A DNA stretch of 10,773 bases from Oligoflexus sp. (GTDB lineage: Bacteria > Bdellovibrionota_B > Oligoflexia > Oligoflexales > Oligoflexaceae): NCBI GenBank assembly GCA_041736305.1, contig JBGSTX010000012.1, positions 1-10,773 of the forward strand, in the 5' to 3' direction. Below the pieces are notes generated by a model that worked only from the letters and a program-made list of their open reading frames with translations, had not been told where the DNA came from and made no database searches. Position numbers and translations under genes: made by a program. Of the stretch, positions 1 to 10,773 are shown piece by piece (positions within the stretch are counted from its first letter, which is position 1; every line of letters starts with the position of its first letter).

Positions 1-1123
1 CAACCGCAGATTCAGCATAAGCGCCACCACTTAATTGGTTCCTACGCATATTCTCCTGAGCGCACGCGATCGCTTGCGGAGCCAGCTCTATTCCCCAAAC
101 TTTGATGCCTTTCGGCAGCAGCGACAGTGAAAAATTCCCACTGCCACAGTAAAGATCGAGAACCGTTTGCGCTTTAAGCTCAAGAACCTTAGCTAGAACC
201 CAGGCGCGCAGTTGCCGGTTGGCTTCGCGATTCACCTGCTGAAACTGACCTCCGAAAGTCAAGTAGGCGAGACCTTGATCGACTTCCCAGAGACGAGCTT
301 CATCGCCGGGTCGAACCCATAACAAGGCTTTCTTAGATGCGGTCGCTTCCGCAAACTGAGCCATTAGCTGTGGTCGCGGCAGATCTCCAGGTTCACCAAG
401 GAAAGTTGCCGTGACGCCAGCTGAAACTTCCTGCAGCTCAAGCTCATACCAAGCTTCCCGAGCGGGAGCGTTGAGCTTTAGCTTTTGCAAGTGGCCAAGA
501 ATCTCGTTGATGGGTTCAGCCGCAACGAAGCACCTTTCGATGGGGACGAGCTCGTGAGTTCCGCTTGCGTAATAACCCATTTCGAGGGAGCCATCAGCCA
601 AGAGGTGCAACTTGAGTTTGATACGATTGCGATAGCCCGCTTGAGCAGGAGAGGGGACCATCTGGATCTCAGTTAGGGAGAGATCAGCTTTGGCGATGCG
701 GGTTAGAGCTGCTTCGATAAAGGACTTCTTCCACGCAAGCTGGGTAGGGTAGGGCACCGCTAGCCACTGACAGCCTCCGCAGCGATCAGCATATTGGCAA
801 GGGTTTGTCTCAAGGTAAGGGGCGGGAATGATGCGTTCCAGAATTTTGGCGCGCGCAAAACGCTCCTTATCCGTGATGAGTTCGACCAACACTTCTTCGC
901 CGGGCAAAGCGTCTTTGATGAAGACAACCTTCCCCTCGTGTCGAGCGATACCGTCACCACCAAAAGCAACCGATTCTACCAGCAGTTTGAGTTTGCTCTT
1001 AGGGGTGGACTTTGGAGGCTGTTTTTCGGCTCGCGTTTGCGGACTTGGCCTTGCCTGCCGACCTGGATTTTGAGGCTTTGGGTGGGCGCTTTTCTTGATC
1101 TTCTTCTTTGTTTTTGACTTCAT
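1..1123 (-). CDS. rlmD: TRAM-domain RNA (uracil-5)-methyltransferase, RlmD/TrmA family (C-terminus beyond the left edge)
   Basis: Manual - strand translation: TRAM domain LKLLVESVAFGGDGIARHEGKVVFIKDALPGEEV; Fe-S motif PCQYADRCGGCQW plus a fourth Cys in ELVPIERC; GYRNRIKL; FQQVN; SAM motif VLDLYCGSGNFSL; GIELAPQAIACAQEN. The only in-frame ATG upstream of the TRAM domain (frame closed by TAG at 1178-1180) is at 1123, so the start is uncertain. Exact RNA target is inferred from family. Confidence 0.92.
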   Translation of the reverse strand, partial: MKSKTKKKIKKSAHPKPQNPGRQARPSPQTRAEKQPPKSTPKSKLKLLVESVAFGGDGIARHEGKVVFIKDALPGEEVLVELITDKERFARAKILERIIPAPYLETNPCQYADRCGGCQWLAVPYPTQLAWKKSFIEAALTRIAKADLSLTEIQMVPSPAQAGYRNRIKLKLHLLADGSLEMGYYASGTHELVPIERCFVAAEPINEILGHLQKLKLNAPAREAWYELELQEVSAGVTATFLGEPGDLPRPQLMAQFAEATASKKALLWVRPGDEARLWEVDQGLAYLTFGGQFQQVNREANRQLRAWVLAKVLELKAQTVLDLYCGSGNFSLSLLPKGIKVWGIELAPQAIACAQENMRRNQLSGGAYAESAV

Positions 1124-1391
1124 CGGTGTGCATGAGCTCGATCGTAATTTGTAATTTTCTATGCCGCATAAGCTCGGCTAATGGTTCTTTGAGGACAGCG
1201 GCCGTTGCCTGGCCAATTTCGCGGCAGATGACTTGCAGAAGTTCGTCGCGACCTTTGCCAGCCCAGGAGGCCAGGGCTCCTAAAAACTCTTTGGGTCCTG
1301 AAAAACCGGCGCCCTGAGACTCTCCCTCCCGAGCGGTCAATATAGTTCCGATCTGCTTCATCCAACGTTCGCGATAGCCGGCATCGCTCAT
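999..1391 (-). CDS. Hypothetical protein, 130 aa, helical core with Lys/Arg/Ser-rich tail
   Basis: ATG at 1391 with GGAG 7 nt upstream; amphipathic helical core (GKGRDELLQVICREIGQATAAVLKEPL); co-oriented with and overlapping the methyltransferase gene. Confidence 0.75.
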   Translation of the reverse strand: MSDAGYRERWMKQIGTILTAREGESQGAGFSGPKEFLGALASWAGKGRDELLQVICREIGQATAAVLKEPLAELMRHRKLQITIELMHTDEVKNKEEDQEKRPPKASKSRSAGKAKSANASRKTASKVHP

Positions 1392-1574: not shown

Positions 1575-2885
1575 TTGATTAATCGCTTCAGCCGCAGACC
1601 TTATATGGCCATTCTTTTAGTACAAGCACTGAGTTTTATCGCCGGAGCTTGCCGCACGAATGATGGCAGTGACGTCGAGCGGGTAAGATACCAAGACCCC
1701 AAGCCTGAGGAGGGGCAAACGATTACCGAAGCCCGCGTCCTTTCTCTGAATCAGTGGGCAAAGGACCTTTTGGGTGCCAGCAAGGATATAGATGATTTTC
1801 AAAGGCTCGCCGACGATTATTTCGCCAAGATAGGGGTTACCGACGCTGATAAGCTTTCGAGCTATACGCTGAGTCTCCGGCCAGGTAGCGAGTGTTTTCA
1901 CGATGGTCGCGATCACAAAGATATTTGGTGGAACGATCACCGCGATCAGATTCGTGCCCAAGTGGAAAGCGCGGCCCAGTTCATCTTCGAATTCCATAAG
2001 GCGATGGTGGGCAAGAACGTAGGACCCTTCTCTATTCGGGAACTTGAAATTTGTCCGCAATCGGTCGTGAAGCGCGAGCTGAACCTTGTCGGCCAAAAGC
2101 TTGTTATCGGTGTTCCCTTCAATTCTGTGCGGGGCGGTTATCAAGTCATTACTTCAGATCAACTCCTACAACGCTGGCGTCGCGGCGATCACTTAGTTGA
2201 AGAAAAAAAGGCCTTCACCAATGTTTTCACACGAAACAAGCTGACGAAGATATGGATGATCTTCGACCCTATCGGCACTCTGCGCAACGGCCTTCGTCAG
2301 TCGATCGCTAGCAATGGCCAGACAGTGCTCAGGCGCTTGGATACGGTGGGCCCTAATCCCGAGCTTGGGAATCTCAAAAACGGCGTCATTGACACTGTCG
2401 TTGATAAGAAGCGGCTCAAGATAGCGACTGATGCCAATCTAGATAAACTTGCCCAGCAGGGGCGTCTACCGCTGATGCTAGAGAACTGGCGCTGCCTAGT
2501 CGCCAGCCTCCGCATGGCTGATGATCTTTCTCTAGGTGCAATAGGGACTCTCGATAAGGCGATGCGGCAGGACAAAAACAAAGTTAATGTAGATATCAAA
2601 GCAGGACTCGTAGCCGTCGGTAACTATCATCAAATAGGAGTCACTTTCGGAGTCGCCGATGGCGTCTATTCTGAATATCTAGAGAAGCCGGAAGTAAATT
2701 CTAGTGATAACGAGATCAATGTCAAAGTCCAAGCGGGTCTGGTGTCCGTCTTCACTATCGATGATGTCAAAGTTGATGTGGCTATCAATCTAGCCAAGCT
2801 TATGGCCAATCGCAGTCTAGAAACTGCGAGCTTTGATGTGGCGGTGCAAGCGGCGCTTTCCAATCAAAACATCTGCAAAAAATAG
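1575..2885 (+). CDS. Putative lipoprotein of unknown function, 436 aa
   Basis: GGAGG at 1564-1568, 6 nt before TTG 1575; basic n-region, hydrophobic h-region and lipobox-like IAGA-C26; long ORF; no catalytic motif recognised. Confidence 0.85.
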   Translation: MINRFSRRPYMAILLVQALSFIAGACRTNDGSDVERVRYQDPKPEEGQTITEARVLSLNQWAKDLLGASKDIDDFQRLADDYFAKIGVTDADKLSSYTLSLRPGSECFHDGRDHKDIWWNDHRDQIRAQVESAAQFIFEFHKAMVGKNVGPFSIRELEICPQSVVKRELNLVGQKLVIGVPFNSVRGGYQVITSDQLLQRWRRGDHLVEEKKAFTNVFTRNKLTKIWMIFDPIGTLRNGLRQSIASNGQTVLRRLDTVGPNPELGNLKNGVIDTVVDKKRLKIATDANLDKLAQQGRLPLMLENWRCLVASLRMADDLSLGAIGTLDKAMRQDKNKVNVDIKAGLVAVGNYHQIGVTFGVADGVYSEYLEKPEVNSSDNEINVKVQAGLVSVFTIDDVKVDVAINLAKLMANRSLETASFDVAVQAALSNQNICKK

Positions 2886-3153: not shown

Positions 3154-5259
3154 ATGGTGGTTCTAAGAACAGTGGCAGGTGTTTCTCTAAGCGGACTTGT
3201 TCTGCTCATGATAGGCAAAACCTGCTTATCCTCTGATTTTATAGCGACGCCAGCAAACCTTAGCTCGAATCAGAGCCCGTCCGAGACTTTAGATTCCAAG
3301 CAATCTAGCCCCACTACGGCTCCCAGCGTAAATTCTCTCGCAAAAGCCCGCGAAGCCCAGCCAAGCGAAAGCTATGCGGAGGCTTTCTACCGCGGCTTAG
3401 CCCAGCTTCCTATACTTGAGCAAAGGCACTCTTCCGAAGGGCCTGTCGCGTTTCGCGAAGACTTGCTTTATAAGCCCGACTATCGATATCCTTCGCTGGT
3501 TCGCCGCTACTACGAAGATGGCCAGGGGAATTATCGTGAAGGTAAAACCCGATTTACTGAAGTTCAGGTGGCAAACCAGTTCCTCGTTCAGATGAAATGG
3601 CCCAGAAAGAAGATGCTTCGCCCCTCTGATTTGCCTGAAGCGTTAAGGGCGAGAGTCGATGAGATTTTTCAGGTCGGTAAACAGACTTTAATAGCAAAGT
3701 TTCATTTTGACAAACTCCATGAACGCGAAGAGATTCGCCAGCTGCTAGCCGATCTTCCTGAAGTTTCTGGTGTTTTCAACGATAGCTTCAGCTTTCTTAC
3801 TGGGACCGCTAACGATGAACACCTAGCCAAGCAGTGGCATCTCGAGAACGATGGCGTGAACTATCGGCAAAGTCCTACCGTGTATGAAGCAGGAGTGGAC
3901 GCAAAGGTGGCAGAAGCTTGGGACTACGCCACCGACTGCAGAAATATTCCTATCGCGGTTTTAGATACTGGTGTCGACTTCGATCATCCCGACCTTCAGC
4001 CGAATATTCTGATGAACGAAGGACGGTCTTTCATTGCCGGTTTGGAGAGTTTTCGAGACGATCATTATCATGGGACTCATGTAGCAGGCATCATTGCTGC
4101 TGCCAGCAATGAAAGCGGAATAGCCGGAGTGTGCTGGAAGGCTAAGATTATACCAGTCAAGGTCATGGACTCGGTCGGAGCTGGCTCTTACAGCGAAGTG
4201 GTTGCAGCCCTGAACTATGTGACCCGTAGCAGCGCACGGATTGCCAATGCTTCCTTAGCTATGGGACCTCTTCCTAATGCAGTACTATCGCCTAACGAAC
4301 CTATAGTCGTCGCCATCAGAGAGTTGGAAAAGGCAGGAAAAATTCTTTTTGCTGCCGCGGGAAATGATGCGGTCTCGATCGATAATGTTCTCTATCTACC
4401 AACTAAAATAGAATCTGACGCTATTATCGCCGTCGGCTCGACAACTCCCTCAGGGATCCTGTCCCCCTTCTCAAATTTCGGTACTGAAGTCGATATAAGC
4501 GGTCCTGGCTCAGAAATACTCTCAACCGTCCCCACTTCCGGAATTTTTCCGCAAGCCAGCCTAGTCAGGGATAATGGAAATCCAGTTTCAGGCTACGGCT
4601 ACCTGAGCGGTACCTCGATGGCTACACCATTGGTAGCTGGTATCGCCGCTCTCTTCTGGAGCCAGGTACCGCTGCTTCCAGCCAAGGAAGTGAGGCGTTA
4701 CCTGCTCGAGCAAAGTACTATTTCCCCAGTCGATCTGCGCATCAAAGGCAACCTCATGGTCAATGCCGCTAAGCTCTTAAAAGGGACCGAGTTTGAATTC
4801 GACCTGATACCGCAAGGGGAAGTAGGTGATTTGCTGCCAGGAAAAGATCTGAAGTTTTCACTTAAGATCAGGAAAGAAGGCTTTTTCGGGCTTAAGAAGA
4901 TCGAACTCATCAACCGTGGCGAACGCATAGCCGAAGTCTTGGCTCCAGAAACTTCCTTTTCGTTTAAAGTGCCGAGTGACCCTGAACTCTCATTGATCAT
5001 CAGGGTCCAGGATACTGCTGGGCGCTACTTTGATTCCAACCCATTCCTCATGCAGGCGGGCGCTGGCAGTTTCGACTTCCAAAAGCTGCGGCTCAATTCT
5101 AGTGGTGACGTCCGTTGCAAAGTCGGGCTAACTGCAAATAATAATTACGTCAAGATTCATGAAGAGGCCTTTGACAGTGCGAAGAGCTGTAAGAAATTTT
5201 GTGATATCATCAAGCCCCTGCTAGGGGCACAGTCGAATTCCATTTTGTGTGGTCCCTGA
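3154..5259 (+). CDS. Secreted S8 family (subtilisin-like) serine protease, 701 aa, with N-terminal pro-region and C-terminal beta-rich and Cys-rich extensions
   Basis: Catalytic triad Asp271 (AVLDTG), His306 (HGTHVAG), Ser488 (SGTSMATP); oxyanion Asn404 (AAAGN); N-terminal hydrophobic segment; ND...QWHL at the start of the mature domain. Confidence 0.96.
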   Translation: MVVLRTVAGVSLSGLVLLMIGKTCLSSDFIATPANLSSNQSPSETLDSKQSSPTTAPSVNSLAKAREAQPSESYAEAFYRGLAQLPILEQRHSSEGPVAFREDLLYKPDYRYPSLVRRYYEDGQGNYREGKTRFTEVQVANQFLVQMKWPRKKMLRPSDLPEALRARVDEIFQVGKQTLIAKFHFDKLHEREEIRQLLADLPEVSGVFNDSFSFLTGTANDEHLAKQWHLENDGVNYRQSPTVYEAGVDAKVAEAWDYATDCRNIPIAVLDTGVDFDHPDLQPNILMNEGRSFIAGLESFRDDHYHGTHVAGIIAAASNESGIAGVCWKAKIIPVKVMDSVGAGSYSEVVAALNYVTRSSARIANASLAMGPLPNAVLSPNEPIVVAIRELEKAGKILFAAAGNDAVSIDNVLYLPTKIESDAIIAVGSTTPSGILSPFSNFGTEVDISGPGSEILSTVPTSGIFPQASLVRDNGNPVSGYGYLSGTSMATPLVAGIAALFWSQVPLLPAKEVRRYLLEQSTISPVDLRIKGNLMVNAAKLLKGTEFEFDLIPQGEVGDLLPGKDLKFSLKIRKEGFFGLKKIELINRGERIAEVLAPETSFSFKVPSDPELSLIIRVQDTAGRYFDSNPFLMQAGAGSFDFQKLRLNSSGDVRCKVGLTANNNYVKIHEEAFDSAKSCKKFCDIIKPLLGAQSNSILCGP

Positions 5260-5300
5260 TCTCTAATTCTGAGCTGTTGTACCTTGCGGAGAAAATTGCG

Positions 5301-5771
5301 ATGAAGTTCCTAAATTCCATGCTGCTACTGGCTTTCTATTTCTTCTTGAGTGCTTGTTCTGAAGGACCTAATTACGACGGGAAAGCGTATCAAAGCCCCC
5401 CTTCGGACTCTCATCTCCTCGAAGCCTTCGAGGCCAGCTTTCAGGAAACTATCGGTCAGTTTCAGCAAGAAACCAGCAGCGAGGAGATCGCTGCTTTGAT
5501 TTTTGCTTCGCAAATGGATTTGCAAACTTCTCTGAGCGAAGCGGATTCGCTACTCGAAGACACGGGACGCTGCGTTCTCCGCGCCTCTGAGGATCTCCAA
5601 GGGGTCTCTGCGAATGCTGAACTAAAACGTAGCGACTCGGGGCTTGTCTATTACTCCGATCTCCTTAGAAAATCGGATGCTTGTCTAAGCTTTTTCAAAG
5701 CGCGCTTTGGGGACGCCTGGGCCAAAAATTCGGGTCGAGTTGCTGTGAGTTTCTTCAGCTATACGCTTTGA
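5301..5771 (+). CDS. Small lipoprotein of unknown function, 156 aa
   Basis: Start revised from 5247 to ATG 5301 (GGAG at 5288-5291); MKFLNSMLLLAFYFF-LSA-C19 is a canonical lipoprotein signal; 41 nt downstream of the protease stop, probably co-transcribed. Confidence 0.85.
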   Translation: MKFLNSMLLLAFYFFLSACSEGPNYDGKAYQSPPSDSHLLEAFEASFQETIGQFQQETSSEEIAALIFASQMDLQTSLSEADSLLEDTGRCVLRASEDLQGVSANAELKRSDSGLVYYSDLLRKSDACLSFFKARFGDAWAKNSGRVAVSFFSYTL

Positions 5772-5776
5772 GGAAT

Positions 5777-6472
5777 TCAGTTGAGCTGGCCTTCCCAAGG
5801 GCCGCGCGTATCCTGCCCAATCGAGCCGCCCATACCCCATTGGCCGCTGAAACTCCGCTGATCACCGGCGAGGGTAAACCGGAACCAACCGATGCTACCA
5901 TTCTCAAAGCGCCACAATCCTTGAGCCGTCTTGCCCTGATCGAGGTACTGAATCTGATACAGGTAACCCGATTGACCGTTGTCGAGGCGGTACCAACCAT
6001 TTTGAGCTTCTAAACTTGTAGTTCCCCACGTCCAGCCGCCCCCACTTTTATACTTAGAACGAAAAGTCTTACTGCTCCAGGGTGAAGTCGCGCCGGAGAG
6101 TTGAACCCAAAAGCTCGCATAGAGACCGTGCTGACTGCGCACTTCAACCTCGTTGCTACCTCCACTAGCGGAGTTTACCGCCTGGTAGAAGGCTGGGATC
6201 GACGAGGTGGGAACTCCTGCAACCTTCGTGATCTCATCGCCGACCTTTATGCCCGCACTTGCGAATGGACTGCCAGGCTGGAGAATCTGAACTCGGACGC
6301 CTCCGTAGCTACCATCGCTGACGACCACGCCCCCGCGGTCTTGACCTTGGCTCAGGTCAGGCACCAGATTGGCAAAACCCTGAGCGAAAGTGCGGGGGGC
6401 AGCTAGTGAACTGAGGCTGATGAAGATGAGAGCTGCGTAGGACTTGAATTTTCTCTTAAGTGAGATTTGCAT
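5777..6472 (-). CDS. Secreted PDZ-domain protein with C-terminal Trp/Gly-rich beta domain, 231 aa
   Basis: Signal peptide (MQISLKRKFK...LAAPRTFA); PDZ signature GGVRVQILQPGSPFASAGIKVGDEITKVAG; AAGGA upstream of the ATG; starts 12 nt after the TPR gene stop. Confidence 0.88.
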   Translation of the reverse strand: MQISLKRKFKSYAALIFISLSSLAAPRTFAQGFANLVPDLSQGQDRGGVVVSDGSYGGVRVQILQPGSPFASAGIKVGDEITKVAGVPTSSIPAFYQAVNSASGGSNEVEVRSQHGLYASFWVQLSGATSPWSSKTFRSKYKSGGGWTWGTTSLEAQNGWYRLDNGQSGYLYQIQYLDQGKTAQGLWRFENGSIGWFRFTLAGDQRSFSGQWGMGGSIGQDTRGPWEGQLN

Positions 6473-6484
6473 TTTTTAGCATCC

Positions 6485-7432
6485 TTAAGACTTGTGTCGC
6501 TGTTTGAGATCGACAATTATTTTTTCGTGTTGCGGGTTACCTTGGGTTTGAGCGCTGAGTTCCTGAAAGAGATCTTGCAACTCGTCGCGCCGTTCGAGTG
6601 CGGCTAGAATTTGCACTTTTTTGACGAGAGTGAAAAATTCTTTCTTTTCGCCGCTTTGCTGGTCGAGGGCGCGATCGATCAAGCTCAGGGCGCGTTCGTA
6701 GGAGCCTTTTTCAAATGAAAGTTGAGCGGCATCTTCATAAAGTCCTGCTTGCTCCTCAGGAGCGGCTTGTACGGCCTGCTCGATTTGTTCAAAGGCTCGG
6801 TCTTTTTCCCCCAGCGAGAGGTAGGCCTGAGCCAGTGGATACTTCAGATCCTCGCCGTTAGCGCCTTCTAGGGCCGCAAACTTATTGAGCGTTTCGACTT
6901 GCTCGTCATGCGAGGTTTTACTGCTCATAATTGCATGCAGCGCCTCATGAGCAAAGATCGGATTAGTCCTGTCCGCAGCCATGGCTTCGAATAGATAGGG
7001 AAGCGCAGCTTCCGGATTCTGCAGCCTTCTCCCTTCGAGCAGCGCTATTTGGAAAAGAGTATCAGGGTCGCCGGGATGTTCGTGCAGATATTTCTTCAGG
7101 GCGTCTCGTGCAGCCTGAGGATCGGCTTCGAGGCCACGCGTCACCTCGACTAGAGCCATGCTTCGCACTGCTCCAGCGGTAGAATGCGAGGGCTCCTCCT
7201 GTGCTCGCGGCTTATCCCTAAGGACAGCTTTTGGAGTCTCAGGCGTCTTGTCCTGAACAGATTCAGCCCAAGACGGCAAAGTAAGCGCAAAGCCCGATTT
7301 CTTCTCCAAGCTTGTGAAGACAATAAAACTGAGACCAGTGAGTGAACACAGGAGCAGTCCTGAACCAAGTATCCCATGGAGAAAAACTTTCTTAGGGGCT
7401 GCAGAAGTTCTTTTCGATGAAATTCGTTTCAT
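6485..7432 (-). CDS. Membrane-anchored tetratricopeptide repeat (TPR) protein, 315 aa
   Basis: Basic N-terminus then one hydrophobic segment (about aa 16-42), a linker, then TPR-like motifs: KKYLHEHPGDPDTLFQIALL, YPLAQAYLSLGEKDRAFEQIEQAVQAAPE, YEDAAQLSFEKGSYERALSLIDRAL; GGAG upstream. Confidence 0.88.
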   Translation of the reverse strand: MKRISSKRTSAAPKKVFLHGILGSGLLLCSLTGLSFIVFTSLEKKSGFALTLPSWAESVQDKTPETPKAVLRDKPRAQEEPSHSTAGAVRSMALVEVTRGLEADPQAARDALKKYLHEHPGDPDTLFQIALLEGRRLQNPEAALPYLFEAMAADRTNPIFAHEALHAIMSSKTSHDEQVETLNKFAALEGANGEDLKYPLAQAYLSLGEKDRAFEQIEQAVQAAPEEQAGLYEDAAQLSFEKGSYERALSLIDRALDQQSGEKKEFFTLVKKVQILAALERRDELQDLFQELSAQTQGNPQHEKIIVDLKQRHKS

Positions 7433-7467
7433 AATCTACCAGCTCCAAGAGCGATATTTTGATGAGG

Positions 7468-7501
7468 GAGGCTCAGCCGCCTCAAGGGCAGCTGAGCTCT
7501 C
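7468..7501 (-). other. Intercistronic GC-rich RNA hairpin
   Basis: On the - strand GCTCAGCTGCC-CTTGA-GGCGGCTGAGC forms an 11-bp stem with one G-U pair, extendable by GAG/CTC; no U-tract follows. Confidence 0.65.
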
Positions 7502-7522
7502 TTGAATTCGAACTACGCGATC

Positions 7523-7936
7523 TTAGAGGCGGGCGTAGATAGTGCGGAACTGACCATTTCTGTGGTCACGAACAGTCAGCTGAACGTTACCGAAAAGTTG
7601 GGCGATGGTTTGCTTGAAGCTAGGGATGTCGTAGGTAGGACGGCCGTTTACTTGAACGATTTCGTCTTGTACTTCAACGCCAGCGTAAGCGAAGGGACTG
7701 AAAGGCTGAACGTATTCTACGCGTACGCCACCGAAGTATCCTGGAGCGACGATCGCACCGGTGCGGTCTTGACCGCTAGTAACATCAGGTACAAGCTTGA
7801 GGGTTTGGCCGCCTGAGTTTCCGCCGCCAGTGCTAGAAGGAGGAGGAGTAGCAGTAGAAGAGCCGCCGCCCCACTGAGCAAAACTGAGTGAAGATATTGA
7901 CAAGAGAACAGATGCGAGTGCGAGTTTAGCTTTCAT
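7523..7936 (-). CDS. Secreted stand-alone PDZ-domain protein, 137 aa
   Basis: Start revised from 7966 to ATG 7936 (GGAG 7 nt upstream); signal peptide MKAKLALASVLLSISSLSFA, G/S/P/T linker, PDZ signature GGVRVEYVQPFSPFAYAGVEVQDEIVQVNG. Confidence 0.88.
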   Translation of the reverse strand: MKAKLALASVLLSISSLSFAQWGGGSSTATPPPSSTGGGNSGGQTLKLVPDVTSGQDRTGAIVAPGYFGGVRVEYVQPFSPFAYAGVEVQDEIVQVNGRPTYDIPSFKQTIAQLFGNVQLTVRDHRNGQFRTIYARL

Positions 7937-8156
7937 GAGTTGTCTCCAAAGTGTGTTTCGTAGCAATCACGCTTAGAGAGACCACCTACGTTGGAAAACA
8001 TTGCAGCATTCTTTAAAATCATCAAATTCAGACCAGTCCAGCCTTAGAGGCCATGTATCCCCGCTATTAAGGAGAGTAAAGACCTCATAAAGCGACATCT
8101 TGACTTGGTTCCGAAAGCTGATGGGGAGCGGCAAACGTCTATATAGTAGAAGAGGC

Positions 8157-8200
8157 TTGCAGAATCATTTCAGGAGGCAATCGCTTTGCTGAATCGTTTC
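8157..8200. repeat. Imperfect 15-bp direct repeat in the divergent intergenic region
   Basis: TTGCAGAATCATTTC (8157-8171) and TTGCTGAATCGTTTC (8186-8200), 13/15 identical, 29-nt period. Confidence 0.5.
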
Positions 8201-8307
8201 TTGGGCTTATAAAAGACGAGTGCGCCATTTAATAAGTGAGATAAATTTATTTTTGCAAATGCATCTTTCTCCTTGAAATTATTGGTTTTTATGGGTTAAA
8301 AGCAAAC

Positions 8308-8338
8308 TGGAGAGAGGCTCCTCGCTGGGGTCTCTCCA
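8308..8338 (+). promoter_or_regulatory. Hairpin in the probable 5' UTR of the helicase gene
   Basis: TGGAGAGA (8308-8315) pairs with TCTCTCCA (8331-8338), plus inner CTCC/GGGG; ends 12 nt before the GAGGTG ribosome-binding site. Confidence 0.55.
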
Positions 8339-8361
8339 AGTCCTATTTACGAGGTGTTAGT

Positions 8362-10773
8362 TTGACGAGTCCCCAAGAGAAATCGGGTTTCGGGGCCTGG
8401 GCCCGCAAAGTTCCAGCCGTATTGAAATCTATGAGTGCGTTTATCTTTCCTAGTGTCGACCGTGAAAAAAAATTGTCGCAACCACCACAGCATGCGCTCC
8501 TGAAAAAACATAAAGCTTTGCTGTCGGAACTTAATTTAGAAGTGCATGACGACCATTTCTACTTTCGCGAGCCGCGCTCCTTTCAAGAGAAGGGCTTGCA
8601 GATTGAATTATTCGCTGAAGCCCGTTCAGCTGCGCCTGTCGACATCTTAGCGGCTCCTGATCTGCAGAAAACAGAGGCGGCTCAGGCTTGGCTTCGGCAG
8701 CAGCGCAACGATCTCAGCGGCAAGACCACAGCAGTGCTCGGTCAGGCGGGAGCGGCTCTGAAGGCGCTCACCGATCTGGTGAATCTTGCTTCCGAACAGA
8801 AGTGGCTCGGTAAAGAAGAAGTTCTTCGCAAGAAATATTTGGAATTTCCTGCTTCGCTCTCAGCCAATGAAGCTTTGACTGTGGCTCGGACCCGGCACAA
8901 GGATCTTCTGTCGAGTCTTTCGCGCGCAAAGAGTGACCATCTCGGCAAAAAGCTCAAAGAGCTGGGTAATTCGCGTCTCAACGGAAGAAGTCTGACCCAG
9001 CGCTACACGCAGACGCTGCCGTTCTTGAGCTCGACGCTCGAACTCGCGTTCGATATAGAGAGATCGCTTGAGCATCGCGAACTGGATCAGCTACTTGATA
9101 CCTCTGACGCGCAGCTGGCAGAGATAGTCAACGGCTTGCTTAAAGATTCGCGAACGGCTCTCGTCAGCCGCGTTGAGGCTCAGCTCCGCGAACTGGCTCG
9201 GCGCATTCGAACTCTACCTCACGTCGAACTGCTGAACGACGCGGCGATAGCGGCGACAGTTGCACCCTATTACGGTGGGCTCAACCGCGCCTTGAAAAAG
9301 CGGCGTGCGAAGAGCGCTCTGGTGGCGGTCGAAGAGGTCGCTCGTGAAGCGAAATATCAGGACGATGTGATCAAGCTCAACGAACATCGTTCTGCTTATG
9401 CCGATGTAGCTGCTTACTATCCAACTGCGCGAGCTCTCAAGCGTCAGCTCGTTCTATACGTAGGTCCTACTAACAGTGGGAAGACCTGGCGATCTCTCAA
9501 CGACCTCGCTGCTGGTGAGAGCGGAGCCTATCTCGCTCCGCTCCGTCTTCTGGCCCTCGAGGGGCAGGAAGAGTTGGAGAAACGTGGCAAGGCTACCTCC
9601 TTCATCACGGGCGAAGAACGCGACCTGCGACCTGACGCTCGTTTTGTCAGCTCGACGATAGAAATGCTCGACGTTGAACGTATCGTTGACGGCGTAGTCA
9701 TCGATGAGGTGCAACTACTCGCCGATGAGCGGCGTGGTTGGGCATGGCTGGCAGCGGTTATCGGTGCCCCGGCCCGTAAAATTATCATGACGGGTTCACC
9801 TGATTGCGTAGATTTGGTCAAGGATTTGGCCAGCTATCTCGGTGAAGAACTGATTATCAACGAGTGTCAGCGCTACAACGAGCTGAAAGTCGCCGATAGC
9901 CCCATGCGCCTCAAAGATGTGCGGGCTGGGACAGCCGTCGTATGCTTCTCGCGTCGCGATGTGCTGAGGATCAAGAGTCAGATCGAGGAGAACACCAATT
10001 TTAAGGTTGCGGTGGTCTACGGCAACCTCAGTCCCCAGGTGCGGCGTGAAGAGGCTCGACGTTTTCGAAGTGGAGAAGCTGAGATCCTGGTCGCGACCGA
10101 TGCTATCGCCATGGGCCTTAATCTACCCATAGCTGAAGTGCTTTTCTACACGATAGAAAAGTTCAACGGCGAAGAAATGGTTGAACTGAGTCAGTCCGAT
10201 ATCAGGCAGATTGGGGGACGGGCGGGGCGTCATGGTTTTGCTCAGTTCGGAACGGTCAATGCCCTTGATCAGAAGAGTCTCGGCGTCATTCGGAAAGCGG
10301 TACAAGGTCAATCCGAAATGCTGCAGCCCCCCTGCTACGTCGCGCCTGGGCACAACCATATCCAAATCATCAGCAGCGTTCTCGGGACTAATTCTCTCGA
10401 ACGTATCCTGACCTTCTTCGAACGCGCGATAGAGTTTTCGGAGGAGCGCTTCGCGCGTTCCAACATCGATGACCTCTCCTATCTTTCGAGTTTTGTCGAC
10501 GAACGCCTGCCTTTCCTCGACGTTAAAGAACGTCTGACGATCGCTTCAGCTCCGGTTGGTGTTCGGAACGAGACCGTAGTCGGTTGGTTTCTCGACCGTA
10601 TGCTGCCAGCCTTCAGAGACCCGAATGCCTCCAGTGACGATTACGAGGAACTGGACGACCTCTTCGAAGCAGCAGATCGTTTTTCTCACGAAGCCGCCCG
10701 CCATCAGCTCGAGCTTCGCGACGCGGAGGATTACCTCAAGACTCTGACAGTTTATGCGTGGCTTGCCTATCGA
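8362..10773 (+). CDS. Suv3-like superfamily 2 RNA/DNA helicase with long N-terminal extension (C-terminus beyond the right edge)
   Basis: Manual translation from TTG 8362 (GAGGTG at 8351-8356; alternative ATG 8431). Suv3 motifs: YPTARALKR, GPTNSGKT (9463-9486), YLAPLRLLALE, ITGEE, STIEM, DEVQ (9703-9714), RGWAW, FSRRDV, VYGNLSP, ILVATDAIAMGLNL, KFNG, QIGGRAGR (10207-10230). Confidence 0.95.
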   Translation, partial: MTSPQEKSGFGAWARKVPAVLKSMSAFIFPSVDREKKLSQPPQHALLKKHKALLSELNLEVHDDHFYFREPRSFQEKGLQIELFAEARSAAPVDILAAPDLQKTEAAQAWLRQQRNDLSGKTTAVLGQAGAALKALTDLVNLASEQKWLGKEEVLRKKYLEFPASLSANEALTVARTRHKDLLSSLSRAKSDHLGKKLKELGNSRLNGRSLTQRYTQTLPFLSSTLELAFDIERSLEHRELDQLLDTSDAQLAEIVNGLLKDSRTALVSRVEAQLRELARRIRTLPHVELLNDAAIAATVAPYYGGLNRALKKRRAKSALVAVEEVAREAKYQDDVIKLNEHRSAYADVAAYYPTARALKRQLVLYVGPTNSGKTWRSLNDLAAGESGAYLAPLRLLALEGQEELEKRGKATSFITGEERDLRPDARFVSSTIEMLDVERIVDGVVIDEVQLLADERRGWAWLAAVIGAPARKIIMTGSPDCVDLVKDLASYLGEELIINECQRYNELKVADSPMRLKDVRAGTAVVCFSRRDVLRIKSQIEENTNFKVAVVYGNLSPQVRREEARRFRSGEAEILVATDAIAMGLNLPIAEVLFYTIEKFNGEEMVELSQSDIRQIGGRAGRHGFAQFGTVNALDQKSLGVIRKAVQGQSEMLQPPCYVAPGHNHIQIISSVLGTNSLERILTFFERAIEFSEERFARSNIDDLSYLSSFVDERLPFLDVKERLTIASAPVGVRNETVVGWFLDRMLPAFRDPNASSDDYEELDDLFEAADRFSHEAARHQLELRDAEDYLKTLTVYAWLAYR

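Follow-up and report, generated by a model that had tools for sequence, protein, structure and literature searches.

Bacterial PDZ domains have, to our knowledge, almost always been studied as parts of proteases. Contig JBGSTX010000012.1 of Oligoflexus sp. raises the question of what such domains do where no protease is joined to them. It carries a trio of neighbouring genes for an exported stand-alone PDZ protein (PDZs), an anchored TPR protein, and an exported protein with a PDZ domain and a C-terminal beta-barrel (PDZb). The window is the whole contig (C103; 10,773 nt), from an assembly of 5.0 Mb in 392 contigs. The trio is tentatively read here as one lineage-restricted operon for a non-catalytic periplasmic binding set, held at the membrane by the TPR protein; this is a real possibility that falls somewhat short of being probable. 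What is shown directly comprises the domains, the export signals, the paralogy, the folds, the linkage kept in a few relatives, and reading frames that are intact in a second strain. Mutual binding of the proteins, use of the PDZ grooves, the clients and any downstream protease we infer.

Gene arrangement

The trio and its parts are as follows.

7523..7936, minus strand: PDZs, 137 aa, exported stand-alone PDZ protein (Pfam, orthologues)
6485..7432, minus strand: TPR protein, 315 aa, N-terminally anchored (Pfam, structure model)
5777..6472, minus strand: PDZb, 231 aa, with signal peptide, PDZ domain and barrel; starts 12 nt past the TPR stop
6089..6337, minus strand: PDZ domain of PDZb, residues 46-128, HtrA type (AlphaFold2, VIA-align)
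5780..6085, minus strand: C-terminal barrel of PDZb, residues 130-231, 8-stranded, up-and-down, no Pfam model
7471..7497, minus strand: spacer hairpin, 11-bp stem with one G-U pair, 5-nt loop, no U tract
7937..8361, no strand assigned: AT-richer intergenic region, 425 nt, between the trio and the divergent helicase gene, presumed to hold the trio promoter

The three open reading frames (ORFs) are co-oriented on the minus strand and would be transcribed in the order PDZs, TPR, PDZb. The spacers of 90 nt (7433-7522, PDZs/TPR) and 12 nt (6473-6484, TPR/PDZb) are exactly those given in the original prediction, which was made from the sequence alone. The ORF of PDZs spans 7523..7966. The ATG at 7936 was chosen as its start in preference to the upstream TTG at 7966, because a GGAG lies 8 nt upstream of it and the N-termini of the orthologues begin there. 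A GGAG/AGGA resembling a ribosome-binding site precedes every start of the trio, and these sites, together with the 12-nt gap, would fit co-transcription and coupled translation. The G+C content is 0.444 over 8001-8500. The promoter scan called no sigma-70-like site on the minus strand of 7937..8361.

The region of the spacer hairpin folds with a minimum free energy of -32.8 kcal/mol, against -25.2 +/- 3.4 kcal/mol for shuffled sequences (z -2.2; 7 of 200 shuffles did as well). The terminator scan made no call at 7471-7497. The hairpin is possibly a transcript-stabilising or partial-attenuation element of the PDZs message.

An independent run from another study (X2) yielded a 6,556-nt contig that covers positions 5000-8083 at 98.4% identity and carries the genes without an indel, so that the reading frames of the trio are intact in a second strain. 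Substitution classes were listed for 40 of the 65 differences. Among these 40, all 8 changes in the TPR domain (residues >=100) are synonymous. Nine non-synonymous changes fall within residues 62-99 of the same protein, from the linker to the first TPR helix, and those in PDZb comprise 4 synonymous and 3 non-synonymous changes. The comparison indicates that the trio genes are real and that the TPR domain is under constraint. Nothing marks a mobile element or island: no tRNA and no Rfam match was found, and the G+C content does not shift across 5.5-8 kb. The PADLOC anti-phage models gave 0 families at E<=0.01 for the three proteins.

Domain composition and predicted structures

The original prediction read the three products as a PDZ protein, a TPR protein and a PDZ protein with a beta-domain, and both Pfam and the structure models agree with it. 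PDZs matches PDZ_6 (6.5e-9, 35.8 bits against a cut-off of 27) and PDZ_2 (28.9 bits against 27). Residues 43-112 of PDZb match PDZ_6 (5.5e-9, 36.1 against 27) and PDZ (28.6 against 23.2), and residues 125-231 have no Pfam match. As had been claimed, a catalytic domain is missing: no protease or other catalytic family was found in the trio proteins at E<=1 in Pfam and NCBIfam.

PDZs is built of a signal peptide (residues ~1-21), a low-complexity G/S/T/P linker (~22-45) and the PDZ domain (~46-137). The N-termini of both PDZ proteins show a basic n-region, a hydrophobic core and an A-x-A-type site (..SFA/Q and ..TFA/Q), and are read as classical cleavable signal peptides, without a lipobox. These signals, together with the predicted N-terminal helix of the TPR protein (residues 25-45), support the export and single-pass anchoring foreseen originally.

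The PDZ domains of PDZs and PDZb are 45-47% identical. Small-PDZ matches at E<=0.01 occur at three places in the assembly, two of which are PDZs and PDZb. Because there are just three such places, the position of the two genes 1 kb apart is attributed to local duplication, not to chance.

The AlphaFold2 model of PDZb, made from a 46-row alignment, has two domains and a mean predicted local distance difference test score (pLDDT) of 81.5. Foldseek gave no match at E<=1e-3 for the two-domain model, and the domains were resolved by a wide VIA structural search. Residues 46-128 have an HtrA-type PDZ fold. They align with 1y8t (Rv0983 of M. tuberculosis) with Z 13.1 and a root-mean-square deviation (rmsd) of 1.7 over 83 residues at 26% identity, and further matches are DegQ, HtrA, DegS and MamP (entries 4yo1, 6z05, 3gcn and 8f0a among them). 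The PDZ domains of HtrA, DegP, DegS and DegQ are the best structural matches overall, in fold and in circular arrangement (Z 10-13, rmsd 1.4-2.4), whereas sequence similarity to them is marginal (PDB phmmer E about 0.01). In the model, compared with HtrA PDZ sequences, a short hairpin appears to stand in for the helix-containing insert that follows the first strand in HtrA PDZ domains.

The two paralogues and their orthologues (seven sequences) share 25 invariant columns, among them those of an R-x-G-hydrophobic stretch immediately ahead of the first strand and residues of the groove helix. The stretch would correspond in position to the carboxylate-binding loop of HtrA PDZ domains. This pattern suggests that the peptide groove of the trio PDZ domains is retained. 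The trio proteins' own C-termini were considered as ligands and rejected: those of PDZs and PDZb form the last strands of their own folds (as seen in the model of PDZb), and that of the TPR protein is polar (...S) and conserved.

The TPR protein matches TPR_14 (2.7e-10, 40.3 bits against a cut-off of 23.5). Its model consists of the anchor helix, a disordered part (residues 46-84) and 13 helices (85-314), with pLDDT 76-94 over residues 100-315. The 13 helices would correspond to about six TPR-like pairs plus a cap, and the 315-aa protein thus has the tandem helix-turn-helix superhelix of TPR repeat proteins. Foldseek returned 84 matches at E<=1e-3, among them consensus TPR, MamA, PilF and the TPR part of OGT. 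On its model, the protein is a generic TPR superhelix. Its basic N-terminus is followed by a hydrophobic stretch of ~26 residues that holds one Cys (residue 29). The residues before this Cys are L-L-L in the window, which is no lipobox, and A-L-A, lipobox-like, in the orthologue P0006. Because the hydrophobic run goes on past Cys 29, the N-terminus is read as a probable signal anchor, with lipidation as the less likely alternative. A complex prediction of TPR residues 95-315 with PDZs residues 30-137, run with shallow alignments and without controls, scored 0.01, 0.64 and 0.01 against a mark of 0.32, which speaks neither for nor against an interaction.

Residues 130-231 of PDZb form eight antiparallel strands, with block pLDDT 89-98 over 131-231. 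In VIA-align they match the barrel of Cap15 (7n34, Z 13.1), designed 8-strand barrels (Z 12.7) and avidins (Z 9-9.7), and match OmpA-type barrels by topology. Cap15, avidins, GrlR and the C-terminal barrels of hemophilin and fHbp share its strand number and up-and-down topology (Z 8.6-13.1), at a sequence identity of 3-18% and with no shared ligand residues known. The match gives a fold and no function, because designed barrels reach scores as high as those of natural barrels.

Distribution and linkage

Among 5.8 billion proteins, three orthologues of PDZb (P0002-P0004, 60-63% identity), two of PDZs (P0008, 66%; P0009, 73%) and one of the TPR protein (P0006, 38%, 269 aa) were found. In the homologue and synteny search on which the original prediction hung, the genes co-occur. 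The longest contig reported is 39,038 nt for each of P0003, P0006 and P0008, which represent all three genes, and 18,320 nt for both P0004 (PDZb) and P0009 (PDZs). A 1,128-nt metagenome contig (L029) carries the last 60 TPR residues, which are conserved, then the 12-nt gap, then PDZb. By contrast, in the four relatives inspected the helicase (59-69% identity) is flanked by none of the other genes of the window. The kept linkage of the trio is therefore not just slow rearrangement, because the flanking synteny is lost at comparable divergence. On this evidence the three genes appear to behave as a unit that is rare, yet kept together in a few close relatives.

Beyond these contigs little was recovered. 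The scan of genome contigs with single proteins found nothing, and that of metagenomes found just L029. Nothing was found in a scan with P0147, a distant representative of the PDZ-barrel architecture. A scan with the alignment of the paralogues had a sole match, an unrelated 35-residue PDZ stretch in a metagenome-assembled genome (MAG) of Anaerolineaceae, which was rejected. In 40 related genomes the matches of PDZb are limited to the barrel, except for one PDZ domain in an unrelated Cys-rich protein of 345 aa. The relatives of the TPR protein there are generic ones, at 21-29% identity.

Proposed function

In the reading put forward here, an N-terminal anchor and ~40 disordered residues that act as a tether would keep a TPR superhelix of about six repeats at the inner membrane. 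It would be accompanied by two paralogous PDZ proteins of HtrA type, soluble, exported by Sec and without a protease. The most likely ligands of their grooves would be exposed peptides of exported proteins, either C-terminal or strand-forming. The barrel on PDZb could offer a second binding site, and the TPR protein would concentrate the set at the membrane. If this is true, PDZ and TPR modules also serve as pure envelope scaffolds in bacteria. The capture of C-termini by the free PDZ domains and their scaffolding by the TPR protein, both part of the original prediction, are conjecture, and that prediction is thus supported in part. A more specific version is unlikely as a whole. It makes the trio a protease-independent envelope adaptor or holdase, in which duplicated free PDZ proteins of HtrA type, one of them with a new ligand-binding barrel, dock on the TPR scaffold and capture the termini of exported proteins; such a set would be the non-catalytic bacterial equivalent of the PDZ scaffolds of eukaryotes, and would have arisen when an HtrA-like ancestor lost its protease.

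Several observations weigh against an operon with a joint function. Linkage on the 39-kb and 18-kb contigs means presence on the same contig, with the gene order not visible, and the word-based search detected no TPR orthologue on the 18-kb contig. The instances are few (the window and three contigs) and closely related (38-73% identity), which makes the kept linkage a weak argument for a joint function. Neither the 40 related genomes nor five genomes chosen by helicase similarity yielded a trio orthologue. The PDZ profile, searched over 95 genomes of the order, found the trio PDZ proteins in its own genome alone and not in the 94 others; two further matches, at ~1e-7, are to ORFs of 337 and 365 aa. 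Since none of these searches found the trio outside its clade, it is unlikely to have a general envelope function. The strong hairpin in the 90-nt spacer may mean that PDZs is expressed separately. Finally, the other fusions of the barrel (DUF4360, lectins, astacin; see below) would fit secreted or extracellular roles equally well. The candidate "system" of the original prediction, confined to a very narrow clade (one genome, its own, among the 95 of the order), thus leans on a small number of near relatives. The general importance of a trio limited to a handful of uncultured relatives is probably small.

Much of this would be expected if the genes had no joint function, being accessory exported proteins in a variable region, brought together by local PDZ duplication and shared descent. 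The very narrow clade, the variability of the region around the conserved helicase, and the much faster divergence of the TPR protein (38%) than of the PDZ proteins (60-73%) would agree with it. It is nevertheless rather unlikely: TPR and PDZb are separated by an identical 12-nt gap in a relative at a protein identity of 60%, and all three genes are found on one contig although flanking synteny is lost at similar divergence.

The barrel and its family

The barrel has no Pfam match in scans of the window and of the copies in relatives, and the ESM Atlas features for it reach a maximum score of 0.77, under the lead threshold. A profile built from 11 copies of the own and related genomes found 366 cluster representatives at E<=1e-3, 95 of them at <=1e-10, among 1.84 billion. 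A domain family of this size without a Pfam match deserves a model and a ligand search. Fusions were counted in 150 representatives, namely the query and 149 listed hits. DUF4360 is carried by 41 of the 150; astacin, ricin-B, OAA lectin, RTX and CDT-A-like domains occur in single representatives each. Thirty-three of the 149 are <=175 aa long, and those that were aligned consist of a signal peptide and the barrel with little else. PDZ_6 occurs in 2 of the 150, the query and one other. P0147 has a weak PDZ_Tricorn match and is collinear with PDZb (28% over 188 residues). By these counts the PDZ-barrel architecture is rare, not unique.

At E<=1e-5 the barrel was found in 18 of 131 genomes of the class, with five copies in the own genome. 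It is enriched in the family, with 11 of the 21 other family genomes against 6 of 109 in the remaining class. Besides the window copy (5780-6085), copies were noted at L003 and L007-L016. In relatives (L008-L011) the barrel is joined to a helical domain in genes sandwiched between genes for LRR proteins.

A promiscuous module of signal-peptide proteins, placed between LRR proteins in relatives and enriched in the family, could also belong to released binding factors that act on prey, host or matrix. The barrel and the PDZ domain would then be targeting modules, and the TPR protein at most a helper in export or retention. The presence in a congener of another protease-less secreted Cys-rich protein that ends in a PDZ domain would fit as well. 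Just Sec-type signals are visible, however, no secretion-system gene lies on the 10.8-kb contig, and a membrane-tethered TPR partner favours the periplasm. We consider release unlikely, though it deserves to be kept in mind.

Comparison with known systems

The cluster was originally proposed to be undescribed, and none of the systems searched for contradicts this: NCBIfam, PADLOC and the open-access literature gave no described system that matches the trio, which is built of known modules. No description of a protease-less PDZ-TPR-PDZ cluster was found in the open-access full-text literature. A survey of 7,852 microbial PDZ proteins reports that 88% of those classified are fused to proteases, and lists four non-protease families and 7% unclassified proteins (PMC6411480). 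The PDZ proteins of the trio would fall among the unclassified ones.

NlpI-Prc of E. coli and LbcA-CtpA of P. aeruginosa, each a TPR lipoprotein that serves as adaptor or activator of a PDZ protease (PMC5686067, PMC11021448, PMC8764530), are like the trio in combining a membrane-attached TPR protein with soluble PDZ protein(s), whose PDZ is expected to read C-termini. In those pairs the PDZ domain lies within an S41 protease and the TPR protein is an outer-membrane lipoprotein. The trio has no protease, two PDZ domains that are of the HtrA and not the Ctp type, and a TPR protein with an N-terminal hydrophobic anchor. No Peptidase_S41 match was found in Pfam (TIGR00225 13.1 bits against 218.6). 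Likewise no Trypsin/S1 family was found at E<=1, and TIGR02037 reaches 18.6 and 19.8 bits against 416, over the PDZ part only.

The original prediction went further and had the trio possibly serving a protease in trans, such as the adjacent subtilase. The two genes that bear on this are the following.

3154-5259, plus strand: S8 subtilase, with D, H and S motifs in the translation
5298-5771, plus strand: lipoprotein gene after the S8 gene, 157 aa, lipobox LSAC, no family match

The two free PDZ proteins and the TPR protein would on that proposal be substrate adaptors by analogy with NlpI-Prc and LbcA-CtpA, and the predominance of protease fusions among classified PDZ proteins speaks for it. 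The S8 gene, with its motifs, lies 0.5 kb from the trio. The C-terminus of the lipoprotein, FFSYT[LF], is aromatic-x-hydrophobic and conserved in the related genome G009, and resembles the ligands of HtrA-type PDZ domains. "Adjacent" thus holds for the distance; the gene lies on the opposite strand, behind the lipoprotein gene, and both converge on PDZb, with 5 nt between the lipoprotein gene and PDZb. Homologues of the S8 protein (38%) and the lipoprotein (33%) stand together on a 6-kb contig of G009 that carries none of the trio genes, and the G009 genome, 82% complete, yielded no trio orthologue. No S41 or S1 domain occurs in the window. Service to the S8 protease is therefore not supported: nothing ties the trio to it, the aromatic tail of the lipoprotein being the only hint, and adaptors for a protease in trans are quite improbable. 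In G009 (L057) the lipoprotein gene lies upstream of the S8 gene, unlike in the window.

In related genomes, the homologues closest to the TPR protein (23-26% identity, 308-352 aa) belong to vWA-TPR (Bat-like) operons. They share the build of the trio TPR protein, with N-terminal anchor, linker and TPR. In these operons (L018, L019, L021, L023) the TPR gene follows a vWA-type gene, assigned by a shared N-terminal sequence, and has no PDZ neighbour, whereas the window has no vWA gene. The vWA-type gene of L018, the only one scanned, reaches 120 and 116 bits with the BatB and BatA models, below their cut-offs. The magnetosome models score far lower than required as well (MamA 38.2 against 200, MamE 14.1 against 800), and the structural matches to MamA and MamP are to generic TPR and PDZ folds.

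GspC is, like the trio proteins, an envelope PDZ protein without a protease; it is membrane-anchored, has an HR/PilP-like domain and is encoded in a type II secretion system (T2SS) operon, none of which applies to the trio PDZ proteins. Parts of a divergent secretion or pilus machine, with GspC-like PDZ proteins and a PilF/PilW-like TPR pilotin, are very improbable, since the weak NCBIfam matches of the PDZ domains to GspC and of the TPR protein to PilW lie far under the cut-offs (NF041616 24.9 against 200, TIGR01713 13.2 against 101.6, NF041515 14.7 against 150, and a further 17.8 against 154), the GspC matches cover the PDZ domain only in proteins without membrane anchor or HR region, no T2SS gene was found in the window with Pfam and NCBIfam and no other T2SS or type IV pilus gene lies on the contig, and what favours this reading otherwise is PilF in the Foldseek list (2fi7, E 8.7e-5).

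Other genes

The gene that diverges from the trio is conserved in relatives.

8362-10773, plus strand: Suv3-type DEXQ-box helicase, with an N-terminal extension of ~350 aa

Its C-terminal 458 residues are 69-82% identical to MAG homologues, and the orthologues in G009 and the four genomes picked by helicase similarity are 59-69% identical. In most genomes labelled "same genus" the helicase is just 37-41% identical, so that either the label is a wide one or these genomes lack the orthologue. The protease-less exported protein of the congener G004 (L059, 1486-2523, minus strand; no NCBIfam match) has 345 aa, with Cys-rich repeats and a C-terminal PDZ domain. At 1575-2885 (plus strand) the window encodes a 436-aa protein with a lipoprotein-like N-terminus (..IAGAC) and no Pfam or NCBIfam match. 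A 130-aa ORF at 999-1391 (minus strand) overlaps the start of an RlmD-like methyltransferase ORF (2-1123, minus strand) by 125 nt out of frame; the overlap probably reflects a wrongly placed start of one of the two, or else a spurious short ORF.

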